A stretch of DNA of 64,000 bases from an uncultured Candidatus Saccharibacteria bacterium (GTDB lineage: Bacteria; Patescibacteriota; Saccharimonadia; Saccharimonadales; UBA7683). Shown in pieces: positions 45,246-58,034 of this stretch. The notes beneath the pieces were generated by a model. The model did not search any database. It was not told the origin of the DNA and saw only the letters and a list, made by a program, of their open reading frames with translations. Positions within the stretch are counted from its first letter, which is position 1. Each line of letters opens with the position of its first letter. The translations under genes were made by a program, and so were the position numbers. The stretch is taken from positions 431,863-495,862 of the forward strand of contig CAZWBG010000001.1 of the NCBI GenBank assembly GCA_964632215.1, in the 5' to 3' direction.

Positions 45246-45962
45246 CTATCGATATTCAGGGTTCTGAAAATCAAAACGCGCGCCTGCATCCCATTCGGAA
45301 CGGACATTGCCATAAGGTGGAAGACCCCCAGCATTTTTTAGTAACTGTGCCATATGCATAAGGTTCCAGGTCATAAAGGTAGTATTACGATTAGTGAAAT
45401 CATTTTGCGGGCCACCAGAGCCCTTTTCAAGATAACTAGGTCCAGGGCCAGCTTCGCCCACCCAACCTGCATCAGCCTGCGGAGGAATAGTGCAACCAAT
45501 ATGCTGCAGACTATAGAGAATATTCATAGCACAATGTTTGATGCCATCTTCGTTACCCGTAATCAGACAACCGCCTACTTTACCATAAAACGCATACTGT
45601 CCTTGCTTGTTTAGCTCAGCTGAATTTCCATACAACCGCTCAATAATCTTTTTAGTAACAGAACTATTGTCACCCAACCAAATTGGGCCAGCGACCACCA
45701 AGATATCGGCTGCTTGTACTTTTTTGTAAAGTTCGGGCCATTCGTCGGTTGCCCAACCTTGCTTAGTCATATCTGGATAGACGCCCGTGGCAATATCGTG
45801 GTCGATCGGCCGAATAACCTCTGTCTTGACGCCATGTTTTTGCATAATTGCTATGCTCACGTCTATTAAGCCTTCGGTGTTACTCACTTCTGGGCTCTTT
45901 TTGAGCGTACAGTTAAAATACAGCGCTCGTAATTGGCTAAAATCCCACTGTTTTTCTACCAT
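45246..45962 (-). CDS. Flavodoxin-fold NAD(P)H-dependent FMN reductase-like oxidoreductase
   Basis: ALYFNCTLKKSP..SNT and ADILVVAGPIWLGDNSS..K..IERL. AAGGGGG SD. Confidence 0.6.
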   Translation of the reverse strand: MVEKQWDFSQLRALYFNCTLKKSPEVSNTEGLIDVSIAIMQKHGVKTEVIRPIDHDIATGVYPDMTKQGWATDEWPELYKKVQAADILVVAGPIWLGDNSSVTKKIIERLYGNSAELNKQGQYAFYGKVGGCLITGNEDGIKHCAMNILYSLQHIGCTIPPQADAGWVGEAGPGPSYLEKGSGGPQNDFTNRNTTFMTWNLMHMAQLLKNAGGLPPYGNVRSEWDAGARFDFQNPEYR

Positions 45963-49230: not shown

Positions 49231-50277
49231 ATGAAAGTTCAAGACCAGGTTACCCTTGCACCTTATACTTCCCTGCACTGCGGTGGGATAGCTGAGAGAG
49301 TTATATTCTGTACCTCACTTGCAGATGTCAGAGAGGTGCTGTCTAGTGTAAATTCTACGCCACTCTGGATTCTCGGCTATGGTACAAATGTTCTTATCTC
49401 TGACAAAGGACTACCCGGCACTACACTACTACTGCATGGTGGTGAGATAAATCGCGAGAATGATATGCTCATAGCAGATGCTGGGGCTTGGTGGGATGAC
49501 GTAGTGCGTACGAGTATTGAGCACGAGCTTTGGGGCATAGAACTTATGAGCGGTATTCCCGGAAGCGTTGGCGCGGCCGTAAGTGGCAATATTGCTGCCT
49601 ACGGTCAACAAGCTGCCTCAACCCTTGCCTGGATAGAGATTTTGGATACTAGCCTCAAAACACTTCGCAAAATGTCTGTTGCTGAAATTATGTTTGATTA
49701 TCGCAGCAGTTCTTTACAAGACAACCCGGAGCTCATCATTACTCGAGCTGCTTTCAAGCTCTCGCGAGCAGAGACCACGCCGTTAACCTACGAATCAGCT
49801 CGCGTAGCAGCAGTAAAATTAAACCTAAATGTAGAGGATCTTACAGATAGACGGGAGATTATTCTTGAGGCTCGTCGTCGAGCAGGCTCCCTTTATCTTC
49901 CAACTGATCCAACCGCTCAGTACACAGCAGGTTCTTTCTTCAAGAACCCACTCGTTTCGGCCGAACAGGCTCTGCAACTTGCCTCTTTCGACGAAACCGG
50001 TAAATCACTGGAGCGAATTATGAAGCAAAACCAAGTACATGGTGGTACTAGCAAGCGCGTCTCGGCTGCTCACGTACTACTGGCTGCAGGCTTTAGCCGT
50101 GGCCAGACCTGGGGCAACGTTCGCTTACACCCTAAGCACGTGCTAAAACTTGAAAATACAGGGGGAGCAACCGCCCAAGAAATCTATACGGTTGCTCAGG
50201 AAATCATACAGACAGTCAAACAAAAACTTGAGATTACACTCGAGCCTGAAGTGAAGTTTCTCGGTGATTTTAAATGA
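49231..50277 (+). CDS. murB: UDP-N-acetylenolpyruvoylglucosamine reductase MurB
   Basis: LAPYTSLHCGGIAE, ILGYGTNVLISD, GIPGSVGAAVSGNIAAYG, and SFFKNP. Confidence 0.85.
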   Translation: MKVQDQVTLAPYTSLHCGGIAERVIFCTSLADVREVLSSVNSTPLWILGYGTNVLISDKGLPGTTLLLHGGEINRENDMLIADAGAWWDDVVRTSIEHELWGIELMSGIPGSVGAAVSGNIAAYGQQAASTLAWIEILDTSLKTLRKMSVAEIMFDYRSSSLQDNPELIITRAAFKLSRAETTPLTYESARVAAVKLNLNVEDLTDRREIILEARRRAGSLYLPTDPTAQYTAGSFFKNPLVSAEQALQLASFDETGKSLERIMKQNQVHGGTSKRVSAAHVLLAAGFSRGQTWGNVRLHPKHVLKLENTGGATAQEIYTVAQEIIQTVKQKLEITLEPEVKFLGDFK

Positions 50278-50289
50278 TACAATTGATAC

Positions 50290-50949
50290 ATGTCGTCTGA
50301 TATTATCATCTTATTAATCTATGCGATCCCCGCCCTCGTTATAAGCATCAGTCTGCACGAGATGATGCACAGCGTAGTTGGCTATTGGCTAGGAGATGAC
50401 ACCGCCAAAATGCTCGGACGCATTAGCCTGAATCCGCTCAAGCATATCGACCCAGTCACCACGATTGGCCTACCACTCATACTCGTCGTGATGGGTCTAC
50501 CACCTTTTGCGGCCGCTAAGCCTGTGCCAATTCAGATGCACCGACTAAAATTTGAAGAATTTGGTATGGCTCTAGTCGGGCTTGCTGGACCGCTAACCAA
50601 CCTCTTGCTGGCAATTATCTCAGGGTTGCTATTAAAGTTCGTCGAGCCGAGTGCACTTGATCTTCTTGCAAATGGACAGATCATTATTAACCAACCATTG
50701 GTTGGTTTCTTGAGCTACATGGTAATGATGAATGTGGGATTATTTGTCTTTAATATGATCCCCTTTCCGCCGCTTGACGGTTCCCGTGTCTTATACGCAC
50801 TCGCGCCTGAGGCTGTACAAAAAGTAATGATGCAGATCGAACAACTTGGCTTTACAGCTATCTTGATCTTCATGTTCGTAGGATTCCCACTCATTAGCCC
50901 ACTGATTCTTGGCGTACAGCGGCTCATACTGACATTTCTTGCGAGCTAA
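50290..50949 (+). CDS. M50-family (site-2 protease-like) membrane metalloprotease
   Basis: HEMMH zinc motif, LNPLKHIDP, and a late PFPPLDGS motif. TACAAT lies 6 nt upstream of the ATG. Confidence 0.8.
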   Translation: MSSDIIILLIYAIPALVISISLHEMMHSVVGYWLGDDTAKMLGRISLNPLKHIDPVTTIGLPLILVVMGLPPFAAAKPVPIQMHRLKFEEFGMALVGLAGPLTNLLLAIISGLLLKFVEPSALDLLANGQIIINQPLVGFLSYMVMMNVGLFVFNMIPFPPLDGSRVLYALAPEAVQKVMMQIEQLGFTAILIFMFVGFPLISPLILGVQRLILTFLAS

Positions 50950-50952
50950 TCT

Positions 50953-52236
50953 TTAGTTATCACTTGGCAAAGGGAACTGCTTGGAAAAAGCGATGACTTC
51001 TTGGTGTAAGTGTTGCAGTTTCTTCTCGTCAGTTCGTGAAATAATTGCTTGGTGCATCCAACTCGCTACTGTTTCCATATCTGCTTCTTTTAGTCCACGA
51101 GTGGTAATGGCTGGCGTACCAAGACGTAGGCCGCTTGGACGAAACGGTGGTAGTGTATCGTTCGGAATAGCGTTACAGTTGGCACTCAAACCAATTTTAT
51201 CGAGGATAATCTGCGCCTCACGGCCATCAATACCAAAGCTGGTCATCATGTCTATTTGTATAAGATGGTTGTCAGTGCCATTCGTTACTAACTTAAACCC
51301 TTTTTTTATAAGTTCATCGGCCAGACGCTTGGCATTTTTGAGGATCTGCTGAGCATATAGTTTAAAATCTGGCTGAGCTGCTTCACGAAAAGCCACAGCC
51401 TTGGCCGCAATCGTGTGCATATGTGGACCACCCTGGAAACCCGGGAAAACTTCTCGGTCAATTAAGGTAGGGAGGTTGTCAACAGTCTTCTCTGGTGCCT
51501 TTAGCGGGTTACCCGCCGTGCCCTTTGTTAAAATCAGGCCACCGCGTGGACCACGCAGAGTCTTGTGAGTTGTGGTGGTAATAATATGAAAGCCAAAATC
51601 AAAAGGATTTGGTAATACCTTCGCAGCTATGAGACCCGCGATGTGAGCCATATCTGCCATCAATACGGCATTCACCTCAGCCGCTATCTCTGCAAATTTT
51701 GCGTAATCGAGGCTTCGTGGATAGCCGCTAAAGCCTGCCAGAATAATCTTTGGCCTCTCAGCAAGTGCAACTGCGCGCATTTGTTCATAATCAATCTCAC
51801 CGGTTTCTATATCTTTCATACCATAACGGACAAAATTGTAGAGTTTAGCACTACTTGTAATAGGCTGCCCATGAGTGAGATGCCCACCTTGGTCAAGCTT
51901 CATAGCCATAACCGTATCTCCCGGTTCTAACCATGCCTGATAAACGGCAATATTAGCTGGAGCACCACTATGGGGTTGTACATTGGCGTGGTCAGCACTA
52001 AACAGCTCTTTAGCTCGGTCAATTGCCAGTTGTTCAATTTTATCGGTATTCTCTTGCCCACCGTAGTAACGTCGGCCTGGATAGCCTTCAGCATACTTAT
52101 TAGTTAGAACACTACCCATCGCCTCAAGTACATCTCGTGAGACATAGTTTTCTGAAGGAATTAACTCAAGCCCTTCTCGTTGACGTTTTTCTTCAGCTGC
52201 CAATAATTTCAGTATTACCTCGTCATGTTGTGCCAT
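50953..52236 (-). CDS. glyA: Serine hydroxymethyltransferase
   Basis: LELIPSENY, YAEGYPGRRYYGG, TTTTHKTLRGPRGG (PLP Lys), and a C-terminal RLGTPA.TTRG. Confidence 0.93.
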   Translation of the reverse strand: MAQHDEVILKLLAAEEKRQREGLELIPSENYVSRDVLEAMGSVLTNKYAEGYPGRRYYGGQENTDKIEQLAIDRAKELFSADHANVQPHSGAPANIAVYQAWLEPGDTVMAMKLDQGGHLTHGQPITSSAKLYNFVRYGMKDIETGEIDYEQMRAVALAERPKIILAGFSGYPRSLDYAKFAEIAAEVNAVLMADMAHIAGLIAAKVLPNPFDFGFHIITTTTHKTLRGPRGGLILTKGTAGNPLKAPEKTVDNLPTLIDREVFPGFQGGPHMHTIAAKAVAFREAAQPDFKLYAQQILKNAKRLADELIKKGFKLVTNGTDNHLIQIDMMTSFGIDGREAQIILDKIGLSANCNAIPNDTLPPFRPSGLRLGTPAITTRGLKEADMETVASWMHQAIISRTDEKKLQHLHQEVIAFSKQFPLPSDN

Positions 52237-52331: not shown

Positions 52332-52360
52332 TTGATATATCATATGTGATATGTTATAGT
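52332..52360 (+). promoter_or_regulatory. Promoter of the HTH::MurA gene with an embedded palindrome (candidate operator)
   Basis: TTGATA (52332-52337), a 17-nt spacer, then TGTTATAGT (-10 at 52355-52360). The spacer contains ATATCA-tatg-TGATAT (52337-52352). Confidence 0.5.
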
Positions 52361-52364
52361 GCTT

Positions 52365-53891
52365 ATGATGCAAGAATATCAACAGAAAATCGGGGAACTT
52401 ATTTCCCGAATTCGTAATCAACAGGGCTTAACGCAAAAAGAGTTAGCCCAGCGACTTAGTACAAGTCAGAGTGCTGTTAACCGTATTGAAGCCGGGCGAC
52501 AGAACGTCACACTTGAGATGCTCGCTCGTATCAGTGATGTACTTAATAAAGATCTTATCAGTCTTGGCACTGGTTCAGTGAATCTACGTGTAGAAGGCGG
52601 TCATAAACTAAGTGGTGCGGTAGAAGTAAAAGTAAGCAAGAATGCCACCGTGGGCTTACTCTGCGCTGCACTACTCAACAAGGGTACTACTACCCTCAAG
52701 AAAGCTCCTCATATTGAAGAGGTCTTTCGGTTAATCGAGGTATTAACAAGTATTGGCGTACGAGCCACCTGGTTAGATAATGGAGATTTAGAGATAAAGC
52801 CTCCAAAAAAGCTCCAGCTTGAGAAGATGGATGTCAGTGCTGCTCGCAGAACCCGAAGCATTATCATGTACCTTGGTGCACTCATGCATACATATAAGAC
52901 GTTTAAGCTCCCTTATGCTGGTGGCTGCAAGTTAGGCAAACGTACCGTAGCGCCCCATTTGCACGCGCTTGCCGAATTTGGCGTAAAGGTTGCAACTCGA
53001 GACAATTACTACGAAGTTAAAGTAAGTAAACGAGCCCCTGCTAAACAAGTTGTGCTGTATGAAATGGGTGATACGGTAAGTGAAAATGTCTTGATGGCAG
53101 CTGCCCTAACCGAGGGCATAACTGAAATCCGCAATATTAGCAGCAACTACATGGTGCAAGATATGTGCTTCTTCTTAGAGGCCGTAGGCGTCACTATAGA
53201 GGGTGTCGGTACAAACGCTCTACGAGTACACGGAGTGAAAGAGATTGATGCTAATGTTACTTTTGCTCCAACCGAAGACCCTATCGAAGCAATGAGTTTT
53301 TTGGCCGCTGCATTTACAACCAATTCTAAAATTACCGTTAAACGCTGCCCGATAGATTTTCTACAAGTTGAACTACTCCGATTAGAAAAGATGGGTTGTA
53401 AGTTTAAGGTTTCCAAAAGCTATAAAGCTGAAAATGGCCGAGGCAACTTGGTTGATATTACGACGCTCGATTCACCGAAACTTATTGCCCCAGAAGACAA
53501 ACTACTAGCCCTTCCCCATCCTGGTATTAATATGGACAACCTGCCCTTCTTCGCACCGATCGTAGCACGTGCCAAAGGTACCACATTAATACACGACTGG
53601 AGCTATGAGGATCGTGCTCTATATATGACAGACCTCCGCAAACTAGGTGTAGATGTCAAACTCGCTGATCCTCACCGCGCGTTCATCACAGGGCCAAGCA
53701 CTTTTGTTGCAGCAGATGTTAACTCGCCACCTGCGCTTCGTCCAGCTGTTATTATCCTTATTACCATGCTGGCCACTCCTGGCACAAGCATTCTTCGTAA
53801 CACGTATTCAATTGCTCGTGGTTACGAGGATTTCGCAGAACGCCTTAATAGTCTTGGTGCACATATCACCACTATGCGTGGTGATATTTAG
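52365..53891 (+). CDS. murA: XRE-family HTH domain fused to UDP-N-acetylglucosamine 1-carboxyvinyltransferase (MurA)
   Basis: The N-terminal ~70 aa read GLTQKELAQRLSTSQSAVNRIEAGRQNVTLEML (HTH_3). MurA blocks follow: VEGGHKLSGAVEVKVSKNA, and the active-site loop AGGCKLGKR. The start is ambiguous (GTG 52359, ATG 52365, ATG 52368). Confidence 0.8.
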   Translation: MMQEYQQKIGELISRIRNQQGLTQKELAQRLSTSQSAVNRIEAGRQNVTLEMLARISDVLNKDLISLGTGSVNLRVEGGHKLSGAVEVKVSKNATVGLLCAALLNKGTTTLKKAPHIEEVFRLIEVLTSIGVRATWLDNGDLEIKPPKKLQLEKMDVSAARRTRSIIMYLGALMHTYKTFKLPYAGGCKLGKRTVAPHLHALAEFGVKVATRDNYYEVKVSKRAPAKQVVLYEMGDTVSENVLMAAALTEGITEIRNISSNYMVQDMCFFLEAVGVTIEGVGTNALRVHGVKEIDANVTFAPTEDPIEAMSFLAAAFTTNSKITVKRCPIDFLQVELLRLEKMGCKFKVSKSYKAENGRGNLVDITTLDSPKLIAPEDKLLALPHPGINMDNLPFFAPIVARAKGTTLIHDWSYEDRALYMTDLRKLGVDVKLADPHRAFITGPSTFVAADVNSPPALRPAVIILITMLATPGTSILRNTYSIARGYEDFAERLNSLGAHITTMRGDI

Positions 53892-53897
53892 CTCAAG

Positions 53898-54530
53898 CTA
53901 AGGCCTAGCAACCAAGCCGTCTTCGGTAACTTCGCCCAGCGGCTTGGCCACAAAGACTTCTCGTCCGTCTGACTCACCCTTCAAGGTGCAGGTGTAGAGC
54001 GTTAACCTGGCAGTATCACTCTTCTGCTCAATCTCAACCTGATCGGGCTTTACTTCGTAAGATTTTTCAACCTCGTAACCGTAGCGCTTTCCCTGAAAAT
54101 CTACCAAGATTTGGTCACCAATGACTAATTTATCAATGTGGTAAAAAGGTGATTTCTGACGTGTTTGGCCAGGTGTTAAGCCCATACTAAAACGGTGGGC
54201 ACTCACAATAAAGTTACCACCAATAGTTGGGTCACCCCGTTCTGGAAAGCGGTGCCAGGCACCTTTTTCCAGAGCTTCAGCCCCACCGGTCACCAGTGGT
54301 ACGCTGACGCCAATTTTAGGTATATAGACCATATCACCGGCTGGCTGTGACAAGCTTTTGGCATCAATTTGCTGCACTGGGTAAAACACGGGAATATTTG
54401 GCGTCATAACAAGTAGCAGAATATACATACCTGCTGCCATTGTACTGAGCGAAACAAAGAGTAGTAGCGCAGAGAGGACTGGTCGTTTTTTTCCAGACTT
54501 TATAAGACCTTCTTTATGCTTAAAATACAT
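53898..54530 (-). CDS. Sortase-family transpeptidase
   Basis: N-terminal TM, VSAHR (His) and TLYTCT (TLxTC Cys motif). Confidence 0.8.
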   Translation of the reverse strand: MYFKHKEGLIKSGKKRPVLSALLLFVSLSTMAAGMYILLLVMTPNIPVFYPVQQIDAKSLSQPAGDMVYIPKIGVSVPLVTGGAEALEKGAWHRFPERGDPTIGGNFIVSAHRFSMGLTPGQTRQKSPFYHIDKLVIGDQILVDFQGKRYGYEVEKSYEVKPDQVEIEQKSDTARLTLYTCTLKGESDGREVFVAKPLGEVTEDGLVARP

Positions 54531-55622: not shown

Positions 55623-58034
55623 TTAGCTACGCTTATCGAGGGCAGCTTGGAGTTCGGGAGCATCTAGCAGTAGTGTTGAGCCAGCGGCAGCACTATTAGT
55701 AAGTAGTTTCTGAGCTACTACATTTTCTACACTGCGCTGCGTAACGCGTCTTAGCGGCCGAGCACCGAGCCGTGGATCGTAGCCAACATCTACTAAAATT
55801 TGCTTGGCAGAATCTGTTAGCTGCACCGAGACTTTTTGGGAAGCAAGTGTTTTATTGATACCAATCAGAATTAGATCAACAACCTGCATCAACTCTTGCT
55901 TAGAAAGAGGCCTGAAGAGCACGATCTCATCAAAACGGTTAAGGAACTCTGGGCGGAAGATGTTGGCATCTATCAGCTCATTGACAAAAGATTCCTCAAA
56001 CTGCTCAAGCGCCTCACCGCTATCAATATGCGCGCGTATTTTATCTGCCCCCGCGTTACTGGTAGCAATAATAATCGCATCACGAAAGCTAACGGGTTTA
56101 TTGTCACTATCGCGCAGCATTCCTTCGTCTAGCATTTGCAGCAACACATTCAGTACATTGGGGTGAGCTTTTTCAATCTCGTCTAGCAGCACGACACTAA
56201 AAGGCTGCTTGGCAATTTGAGCAGTTAGACTATTAGTATTTTGTGAACCAATTTCGAGTAGCCGTGTTACATCGGTAGCCTGCGAATACTCATTGAGATC
56301 TACTCGTATAAGATGGTCTTCTCCTCCGAAGTAAACTGCAGCCAGAGCCTTAGAAAGCTCAGTCTTACCAACACCCGTAGGACCAAGAAATAGAAAAGTA
56401 CCAATTGGCTTAGATTGGTTACGCACCCCAGCTCGTGCACGACGCAGTGCATCACTAACTACCTGCACGGCATGAGTTTGGTTAATCATCCGTTCGTGAA
56501 TTTTGCCCTCTAGGTTCATGAGCATGTCTCGCTCTTCGGTTGTTGAGGCTGTCTGCACTTTTACATCAAAAGATTTCTCCACCGCTTCCTGTACAGATTT
56601 TTCGGTAATAAATACCTTTTGCTCAGGAAAACCTGCCGCAGCCTCAAGCAACCGTATGGCCTTACCTGGAAATGCTTGGTCACGAATAAAGCGTTCTGCT
56701 AGTTTGTAGGCTTCTTGCAGACTCTGATACATATAGGTTACTTTGTGCTGCGCTTCCAGCAGGAGAATCTGGTCTTCTACAACGCTCATAGTATCGGCTT
56801 GGTCAAGTGGATTCACTACGACCCTGTTCATTAATTGGCTGAGACCTGGGTTCGTCTGCGAGAGCGCCAGCCACTGTTGATCACTCATGGCTAGAATTAA
56901 GCGAATACCACCGCCTTCTAGTACTGGTAATAAGATGTTAGAAAGATCGACTGATCCAGTCTTATCTTGCAAAAAGAGTTGTGCCTCATCTAAAAATAGA
57001 ATGACATTCTTAGACGAAGCTGCTTCATTCAGGAGACGGATCAAAAGCTCCTCAAGATCTCCTCGCCCCTTAGCTTGAGCGATCAAACTTGAGGCATCGA
57101 GTGAGATAATTTGCTGATATTTTATACCTCGCGGCACAGCCTTATCGCCAAGCATCTTTTGTGCTAAGGCGTAGACGAGGGTAGTCTTACCAACTCCAAC
57201 TTCACCAACCAAGACCGCGTTTCTACGCCCAGGTTGTGTCAGTAGGTGAATAATCTGACTTATGATTTCTTCATGTCCTCCAATCGCTCGGTGCAACAAC
57301 CCCCCCGATTCAATACTCTCAGTAATGTTTTGACCAATCCGATTCAAGAGCGGTGCCCAACCAAAGCTTAGGTCTCGCCCCAAGCCGCCGTGGGATCCTT
57401 TCTGCTGGAAGTTCCGAACAACTACTTGAATGTGTGCGTACCACTTTACTCCAGCCGTAATATCATCACCATCAAGATTTAACTGCGCTAAATATAAATT
57501 ATAGTCTGGTAAGGTAAAGATGATAGCAGCAACTACAGTCGCACTATTGATAAGTGTTTGGTCAGTCTGCCCAGTCAGCTCCATAGCGTATTGCCACACC
57601 TTTTGAGCATCTTCTGGTACGGCGCTGGTCAGCTGTGTGAGCAACTCAGAAGATATTGCAAAACGGGCCGCAAAAAACCTACCGCCCGTATCTTTTGTAG
57701 AAATTCGTGCAATATCTTGAATTGTCGGGCTTGCTGGTAGCCTACCTAATATTTTTCTATCTAGTGCGTCGTCTATGGAAGTTATTGATTTTGCAGCTGG
57801 TAGGTTTTTTAGCTCACCTTCGTACCATGCAATCGGTACTAGAAAGACAGCTACGAATATCAGCAGCAGATGCGCAATGGCCAACTGTTCAAATAATGCT
57901 AAGAATCCCCAGCCAATGAGGCTTACAAGGGCTAGAAAAATACCTATACGTCGCAACCAGATGCTATCAAACACTATACTAAGCCGTGCCTTACGAGCTC
58001 GGCTACTTGTATAGTTGAATGTTATCGGGTTCAT
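55623..58034 (-). CDS. Membrane-anchored ClpA/ClpB/ClpC-like double AAA+ ATPase
   Basis: Two N-terminal TM helices come first. D1 has GHEEIISQIIHLL.....NAVLVGEVGVGKT and ILFLDEAQ. D2 has FLFLGPTGVGKTELSKALA, VVLLDEIEKAHP and PEFLNRFDEIV.F. Confidence 0.8.
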   Translation of the reverse strand: MNPITFNYTSSRARKARLSIVFDSIWLRRIGIFLALVSLIGWGFLALFEQLAIAHLLLIFVAVFLVPIAWYEGELKNLPAAKSITSIDDALDRKILGRLPASPTIQDIARISTKDTGGRFFAARFAISSELLTQLTSAVPEDAQKVWQYAMELTGQTDQTLINSATVVAAIIFTLPDYNLYLAQLNLDGDDITAGVKWYAHIQVVVRNFQQKGSHGGLGRDLSFGWAPLLNRIGQNITESIESGGLLHRAIGGHEEIISQIIHLLTQPGRRNAVLVGEVGVGKTTLVYALAQKMLGDKAVPRGIKYQQIISLDASSLIAQAKGRGDLEELLIRLLNEAASSKNVILFLDEAQLFLQDKTGSVDLSNILLPVLEGGGIRLILAMSDQQWLALSQTNPGLSQLMNRVVVNPLDQADTMSVVEDQILLLEAQHKVTYMYQSLQEAYKLAERFIRDQAFPGKAIRLLEAAAGFPEQKVFITEKSVQEAVEKSFDVKVQTASTTEERDMLMNLEGKIHERMINQTHAVQVVSDALRRARAGVRNQSKPIGTFLFLGPTGVGKTELSKALAAVYFGGEDHLIRVDLNEYSQATDVTRLLEIGSQNTNSLTAQIAKQPFSVVLLDEIEKAHPNVLNVLLQMLDEGMLRDSDNKPVSFRDAIIIATSNAGADKIRAHIDSGEALEQFEESFVNELIDANIFRPEFLNRFDEIVLFRPLSKQELMQVVDLILIGINKTLASQKVSVQLTDSAKQILVDVGYDPRLGARPLRRVTQRSVENVVAQKLLTNSAAAGSTLLLDAPELQAALDKRS

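Follow-up and report, generated by a model that had tools for sequence, protein, structure and literature searches.

We analysed a window of 64,000 nucleotides (nt), positions 431,863 to 495,862 of contig CAZWBG010000001.1 from an uncultured Candidatus Saccharibacteria bacterium, and focused on one of its genes, HTH-murA, which encodes a MurA enolpyruvyl transferase joined to an N-terminal helix-turn-helix (HTH) domain of the XRE type. We think it probable that the product is bifunctional, being both a MurA enzyme and an autorepressor whose HTH binds a palindrome in its own promoter, and that its mRNA is leaderless. In the mechanism that we propose, the C-terminal 437 residues would be an active MurA, the only one in the genome, and the N-terminal XRE HTH would most likely bind the 18-bp sequence TATATCA-N4-TGATAT(A) as two copies. 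The palindrome occupies the spacer of a sigma-70-type promoter, that of the gene itself, and touches or overlaps its extended -10 element; the bound protein would exclude RNA polymerase, so that MurA would hold down its own production. An operator that lies in the spacer and over the -10 of a promoter with optimal 17-nt spacing has the geometry expected of a steric repressor, which is why we read the arrangement as negative autoregulation. The elements of the gene and its promoter are the following, in coordinates of the window.

52332..52337, + strand: -35 hexamer TTGATA, overlapping the left edge of the palindrome
52336..52353, no strand: palindrome (predicted operator) TATATCA-tatg-TGATATg, with the core ATATCA-N4-TGATAT at 52337-52352
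52352..52360, + strand: extended -10 element TGtTATAGT, at a 17-nt spacer from the -35
52368..53891, + strand: HTH-MurA fusion gene, 507 amino acids (aa) from ATG 52368, alternative ATG at 52365, mRNA probably leaderless
52404..52556, + strand: XRE/Cro-C1 HTH_3 domain (Pfam), aa 14-64 of the protein P0001
52461-52490, + strand: recognition helix TSQSAVNRIE, within the HTH_3 domain
52545..52577, + strand: flexible linker, aa 61-71, of low pLDDT
52578..53888, + strand: MurA enolpyruvyl transferase domain, aa 72-508, with the codon of catalytic Cys188 at 52926-52928

A single open frame runs from 52365/52368 to 53891 on the + strand without an internal stop, and both domains exceed the cut-offs of their Pfam models: HTH_3 (PF01381) at aa 14-64 (E 8e-15, 55.1 bits against 23) and EPSP_synthase (PF00275) at aa 76-494 (E 4e-46, 158 bits against 22.8). 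The uninterrupted fusion of an XRE HTH to a full MurA, proposed in an earlier sequence-only reading of this DNA, is thus borne out. The peptides quoted in that reading are all present in the translation, including AGGCKLGKR, in which Cys188 is the equivalent of C115 of Escherichia coli; the catalytic-loop Cys is retained, as had been claimed. In NCBIfam, the protein passes the MurA subfamily model NF006873 (312.8 bits, cut-off 297) and misses the strict equivalog TIGR01072 (294.7 against 392.7), which points to a divergent MurA lineage. Eight catalytic or substrate-binding residues of the E. coli enzyme (K22, N23, R91, C115, R120, D305, R331 and R397) correspond to K92, N93, R164, C188, R193, D391, R417 and R459, and all eight are invariant among 53 homologues. 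The AlphaFold (AF2) model (pLDDT 88.3) comprises a four-helix HTH, with helices predicted at residues 2-19, 24-30, 35-42 and 50-60, a linker with pLDDT of about 52 over residues 61-70 (below 50 at 66-69), and a confident MurA body. This body superposes on more than 40 solved MurA chains (Foldseek TM, target, 0.88-0.92), which rank ahead of AroA. On the HTH side, TSQSA[VI]NR[IM]E, the recognition helix, does not vary among the 56 orthologues examined. With intact catalytic residues, a MurA fold and an invariant recognition helix, both halves of the fusion look functional. Relative to solved MurA structures, the enzyme part carries an insertion of about 11 residues, YKAENGRGNLV (residues ~352-362 of P0001; window ~53418-53450), which is a feature of this MurA sublineage and is kept in fused relatives and in near unfused ones.

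The genome assembly amounts to 929 kb and is 97.75% complete; HTH-MurA is its sole PF00275 gene, and murB plus at least six Mur-ligase genes are found in the same genome. It is therefore reasonable to assign the MurA role in the pathway to the fused protein. Homologues carry the name Candidatus Saccharibacteria.

Upstream of the gene, the TTGATA hexamer, the palindrome at 52337-52352, the extended -10 behind a 17-nt spacer and the two ATG codons are all located where the sequence-only reading had placed them. An independent consensus scan recovers TTGATA-17-TATAGT (10/12 matches, TG present), an inverted-repeat scan also recovers the palindrome, and the 18-mer at 52336-52353 fits 13/14 specified bases of TATATCA-N4-TGATATA. 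The ATG codons at 52365 and 52368 lie 4 and 7 nt past the -10 element, and no Shine-Dalgarno (SD) sequence precedes the gene. The likely start is ATG 52368, since orthologues align from residue 2 of the longer reading. Transcription of HTH-murA probably starts at or within a few bases of this codon, which would make the mRNA leaderless. The same idea, put forward in the sequence-only reading, is consistent with the distance from -10 to ATG across orthologues (6-9 nt) and with an SD-like leader in just 2/56 loci. Leaderless mRNAs seem common in genome G000, where ~132-145 of the 983 long open reading frames (ORFs) have a -10-like hexamer 6-8 nt before the ATG and no SD-like sequence, against a rough chance expectation of ~22; the count is crude and was made with no gene caller.

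The evidence that the palindrome matters comes mainly from its conservation. We scored the 12 specified positions of the consensus TATATCA-N4-TGATATA, or more generally TATAYC-N6-GRTATA, in 55 orthologous loci of ~4.5 kb each, with 234,762 positions as background. A match of at least 10/12 is found within 120 nt of the gene in 53/55 loci, and it is perfect (12/12) in 25; the background contains no position at 12/12, 4 at 11/12 and 48 at 10/12. In 46/55 loci, the best match of the whole locus lies no more than 45 nt before the start codon. The upstream regions of the orthologues have nothing but this motif in common. Its end is located 8-18 nt before the ATG in 51 of these 53 loci, or 51 of the full 55, in the promoter spacer or over the -10, and its arms vary symmetrically (ATATCA/TGATAT, TATACC/GGTATA, ATATCG/CGATAT). 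The left arm often borders directly on a TTGAC-type -35 (TTGACA in many orthologues). The right arm serves as the extended -10 in most orthologues, where it reads TGATATAAT or TGATATACT and the ATG comes 6-9 nt later. The exact 12-base palindrome of the window occurs once in the 929-kb genome. Being unique there, and conserved in orthologous promoters despite complete divergence of the rest of the intergenic sequence, it is not a product of chance. The palindrome had been called a plausible operator for the fused HTH, and its conservation, position, symmetry and co-occurrence with the HTH all support that proposal.

The fusion itself is old and widespread. More than 120 database clusters, at 61-81% identity, carry the HTH and MurA domains together, and 37/41 relatives encode the fusion in one frame without stops. 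In a sample of 151 genomes of the class, all same-order genomes with a full-length match are fused (53-63% identity); most other orders in this sample have an unfused MurA that is merely 25-32% identical. A phylum-wide sample contains the fused form in 16 genomes from at least eight other families, with a patchy distribution in other classes. Phylogenetically, the enzyme domains of all fused forms group with those of three unfused proteins in a single clade (SH-aLRT 97), nested inside a MurA sublineage with SH-aLRT 100. Relatives thus keep the fusion across the order, and neither a frameshift nor an assembly artefact, raised as a concern in the sequence-only reading, accounts for it; judging from these comparisons, the fusion is real and under selection. 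Two apparent stand-alone HTH proteins, in genomes G027 and G078, were rejected as truncations at contig ends. Genome G038, of the same order, encodes a canonical unfused MurA (contig 11:51664-52824, locus L098; PF00275, 248 bits), and the HTH-MurA query found no fused form there; this gene could represent a replacement, contamination or horizontal transfer.

A whole-library HMMER search reached fused proteins at 32-42% identity, in which the fates of the two halves can be followed separately. Seven of these distant homologues are devoid of C115, R120 and R91 (E. coli numbering), some also of K22, D305 or R397, and all seven retain a near-identical recognition helix. A palindrome, in one case degenerate, stands before the own gene or operon in 4/5 of the Cys-less homologues whose DNA was examined. 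Three of them are divergent from an operon with a canonical murA plus murB or a Mur ligase gene. P0132 (L099:2624-5503) is divergent from a canonical murA-murB operon and lies ahead of ddl and a Mur ligase gene, with a 60-bp intergenic region that reads TTGACA-at-ATATCATATATGATAT-12 nt-ATG; P0134 (L105), next to a Mur ligase-murA operon, has its palindrome immediately before the ATG; P0146 (L103) adjoins murA-murB and has the degenerate palindrome. In all three loci the palindrome is located in the short intergenic stretch between the divergent genes. These three look like pseudoenzyme regulators of peptidoglycan genes. Elsewhere, P0145 is the last gene of a NUDIX-nucleotidyltransferase operon with palindromes before both upstream genes, and P0190 lies downstream of murB and relA/spoT with a palindrome 16 nt before its ATG. 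Among fused forms of other classes with an intact catalytic site, too, the palindrome is found 10-33 nt before the start; three of them (L108, L110, L114) have a full or partial palindrome directly after a terminator, with no divergent gene. In L104 and L106, the palindrome lies between co-directional genes. The palindrome thus co-occurs with the HTH across very different gene contexts. The reverse loss also exists, P0129 having a decayed HTH and P0124, P0126 and P0128 none. The persistence of either half without the other is an argument for a separate selected function in each.

These distant proteins also bear on the idea that the HTH is vestigial or purely structural, the protein being an enzyme only and the conservation of the motif unrelated. 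Databases do name the protein plain MurA, the HTH is modelled with lower confidence than the enzyme, and one relative, P0129, has a degenerate HTH. Yet ten residues of the recognition helix do not vary among proteins with an overall identity of 57-80%, and at 32-40% identity the helix has hardly changed, including in proteins with a decayed enzyme part. A vestige would not be expected to outlive the catalytic site, and we find this explanation hardly credible.

Around HTH-murA, the window contains the following genes; a cupin protein gene is also located downstream.

49231..50277, + strand: murB, the next pathway enzyme, 2 kb upstream of HTH-murA
50290-50949, + strand: M50 peptidase
50953..52236, - strand: glyA (serine hydroxymethyltransferase), the divergent neighbour, which has a 131-bp intergenic region in common with HTH-murA
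53898-54530, - strand: sortase, convergent with HTH-murA
55623-58034, - strand: ClpC/ClpB-like AAA+ ATPase, 1.7 kb downstream of HTH-murA

A ClpC-like gene is also found near the fused gene in locus L103. The glyA gene is divergent from HTH-murA and adjoins it in 54/56 orthologous loci, with a gap of 62-260 bp in 46 of them; this linkage may reflect a shared operator or merely a conserved gene order. In eight of the divergent loci the gap is just 62-68 bp, and there the palindrome must overlap the glyA promoter. In the window, glyA has a promoter-like site of its own at 52297-52269, 40 bp from the palindrome, so that co-regulation of glyA is uncertain here.

This proximity invites the explanation that the palindrome is promoter architecture, namely two back-to-back extended -10 boxes serving the divergent murA and glyA. 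TGATATA(AT) is indeed an extended -10 whose mirror image could act on the other strand, the two genes are divergent in nearly all loci and at times very close, and half-site matches occur at other leaderless promoters in the genome. However, the bases flanking the left arm fail to complete a usable opposite-strand -10 in most loci, and the palindrome persists where no divergent gene exists, after the terminators and between the co-directional genes described above; on these two grounds we rejected the pair of divergent -10 boxes. Moreover, symmetric changes away from the -10 consensus, such as TATACC/GGTATA and ATATCG/CGATAT, are unexpected for -10 boxes, and the glyA of the window has its separate promoter-like site. 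We regard this explanation as very unlikely.

Another explanation is that the palindrome is a real operator for a different regulator, with the HTH of MurA serving nucleoid tethering or protein contacts. The genome encodes only two HTH_3 proteins, a small number that also speaks for our own reading, and the second, a 78-aa stand-alone XRE protein on contig 2, would be an obvious candidate; strict palindromes at loci unrelated to murA in relatives would also suit a general regulator. The distribution of the palindrome speaks otherwise. It tracks the HTH-MurA or HTH-MurA-like gene wherever that gene lies, be it beside glyA, beside murA-murB, behind relA/spoT, in the NUDIX-nucleotidyltransferase operon or after terminators. 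Unfused murA promoters are devoid of it: 10 of them, from other orders, score 7-9/12 and have SD-like leaders instead. Outside the order, the palindrome is strongly enriched in fusion-carrying genomes, the strict 18-mer being present in 8/16 genomes with the fusion against 4/269 without it, figures that, the genomes being interrelated, show a pattern and should not be read as a statistical test; six of the eight have it directly 5′ of the fusion gene. Finally, invariance of the operator goes together with invariance of the recognition helix. Control by another regulator is thus, in our judgement, unlikely.

We also looked for further targets. A genome-wide motif scan found no further convincing palindrome site in the window's own genome. 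The partial palindrome TATCAGATATGATA at contig 1:373227-373240 (L125) was not counted as a target because it precedes a tRNA cluster; it sits inside a promoter-like TTGAAA-17-TATGAT, ~115 nt before four tRNA genes. Relaxed sites at 45523 and 216437 lie inside ORFs and were not counted either. The ftsA gene was considered as a second target, with an 11/12 site 9 nt before it in the own genome. The ftsA promoters of the same order are without the palindrome (7-9/12 in 29/30 loci, that is, in all 29 relatives), and we read the unconserved 11/12 site as chance plus a shared -10. The ftsA gene is also leaderless in the order, behind a conserved TAAGCGnTATACT box: upstream we find TAAGCG-n-TATACT, then 6-9 nt and the ATG, with no SD sequence (L126-L155; own contig 2:83452-83500). 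The arrangement resembles a leaderless promoter that has, in addition, a conserved AAGCG extension.

Some points weigh against our interpretation of HTH-murA as an autoregulated gene. The palindrome is not exclusive to the HTH-murA promoter: 18/30 strict 18-mers examined in relatives lie away from the fusion gene, 10 of them within ORFs and 8 intergenic, and genome G404, of another family (1.2 Mb; L197-L204), has 12 strict TATATCA-N4-TGATATA sites. Because the right arm doubles as the extended -10 (TGATATAAT), the independent evidence is confined to the left arm, the symmetry and the fixed spacing. The orthologous loci are related by descent, so our counts overstate their independence. The start site and the leaderless state are deduced from spacing only. 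Lastly, to our knowledge MurA enzymes are not known to dimerise obligatorily.

The additional sites in relatives have features of their own. Exact 12-base sites away from murA are mostly inside coding regions. In two families of the order, a gene whose product starts like threonyl-tRNA synthetase (thrS) is preceded at ~230-245 nt by a perfect 18-bp palindrome (L173:515-532; L185:1501-1518). Two other families have palindromes ahead of putative secreted proteins that resemble each other, at distances of 146 nt (L167) and 250 nt (L193). In G404, 5/7 examined sites are intergenic and one precedes the genome's own HTH-MurA; others are near glycosyltransferase-like, TetR-like and aminotransferase-like genes, and the set could be an expanded regulon. 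A reversed-pattern control returned 1 site in 201 genomes, which means that base composition by itself does not explain the extra sites. They may belong to a wider regulon in relatives.

With respect to the mechanism, we infer DNA binding by the HTH, a dimeric mode and repression rather than activation from the arrangement described. With ~12 bp between their centres, the half-sites would allow a pair of HTH domains to sit on the same face of the DNA. Autoregulation by dimers bound to palindromes is common among XRE regulators (PMC12565409). A complex prediction for two copies of residues 1-72 (score 0.30, mark 0.42) is neutral on dimerisation. Whether the ligand state of the MurA domain (UDP-GlcNAc, the phosphoenolpyruvate (PEP) adduct, UDP-MurNAc) tunes DNA binding is speculative. 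Hints of such coupling are indirect: the Cys-less paralogues retain a MurA-like domain, and the titles of solved MurA entries describe UDP-MurNAc and a PEP-Cys adduct trapped in the MurA fold, which makes product sensing plausible. We tentatively hypothesize, as a possibility rather than an expectation, that the MurA domain is a sensor whose open, closed or "dormant" (UDP-MurNAc plus PEP adduct) state sets the affinity of the HTH, and that the Cys-less HTH-pseudoMurA proteins are derived repressors sensing UDP-sugars. If this were true, one protein would gauge peptidoglycan-precursor flux and set murA transcription, some lineages would also control glyA, murA-murB and further promoters, and the system would be among the few transcription circuits common across Patescibacteria.

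MurA, the fosfomycin target, catalyses the committed step of cell-wall synthesis and is known to be controlled by feedback inhibition and by proteolysis. Saccharibacteria are ultrasmall episymbiotic bacteria that include human oral strains and have very few transcription factors. A MurA equipped with a repressor domain and an operator of its own would regulate the committed step in a new and very compact way. With the fusion fixed in the whole order, and with protein, 18-bp site and candidate ligands all defined, the circuit may be one of the first in the Candidate Phyla Radiation that can be tested directly. The Cys-less paralogues amount to a natural separation-of-function series and suggest that the enolpyruvyl transferase fold was recruited as a sensor domain. 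We found no description of the HTH-MurA fusion or of its operator in the literature, in a search with many subscription journals outside its coverage, which leaves absence unproven. Databases label the proteins plain MurA.

Comparable architectures exist in other pathways. The biotin protein ligase BirA, repressor of the bio operon, also carries an N-terminal HTH-type domain and an active enzyme in one chain, with a palindromic operator that overlaps a promoter. Its DNA binding is driven by the biotinyl-AMP intermediate. BirA differs in having a winged HTH instead of an XRE HTH and an unrelated enzyme, whereas the predicted target of HTH-MurA is the enzyme's own gene. PutA and NadR, known as "trigger enzymes", likewise join a metabolic enzyme to a DNA-binding domain that regulates its own pathway or gene, but they differ in DNA-binding fold (ribbon-helix-helix in PutA) and in pathway (proline catabolism, NAD salvage). 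Judged by its sequence, HTH-MurA has the domain composition of a trigger enzyme, in that a single chain carries a predicted DNA-binding domain and a MurA in which no catalytic residue is missing. We know of no peptidoglycan enzyme among enzyme-repressor fusions, and none was found in the literature searched.

The HTH of the window also matches, weakly, the NCBIfam family NF006015 / PRK08154, in which an N-terminal XRE HTH of this kind precedes another small-molecule enzyme, shikimate kinase; there the enzyme domain is different and the protein is annotated as a regulator of anaerobic benzoate catabolism. Stand-alone XRE regulators (434 Cro/cI type, HipB, DdrO, ImmR) have the HTH_3 fold and a palindrome in their own promoter in common with HTH-MurA. 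They autoregulate as dimers on these palindromic own-promoter operators (PMC12565409). Unlike HTH-MurA, in which the partner of the HTH is an essential biosynthetic enzyme, they are small or carry sensor or peptidase domains. Like the proposed circuit, the ClpCP/ReoM/ReoY system of Firmicutes acts on how much MurA is present as the gate of peptidoglycan synthesis. There, ClpCP, with ReoM/ReoY, degrades MurA, so control is exerted not through transcription but by proteolysis of a canonical MurA that has no DNA-binding domain. Taken together, these comparisons place HTH-MurA within the known kind of enzyme that carries its own repressor domain, while the enzyme, the pathway and the clade are new.

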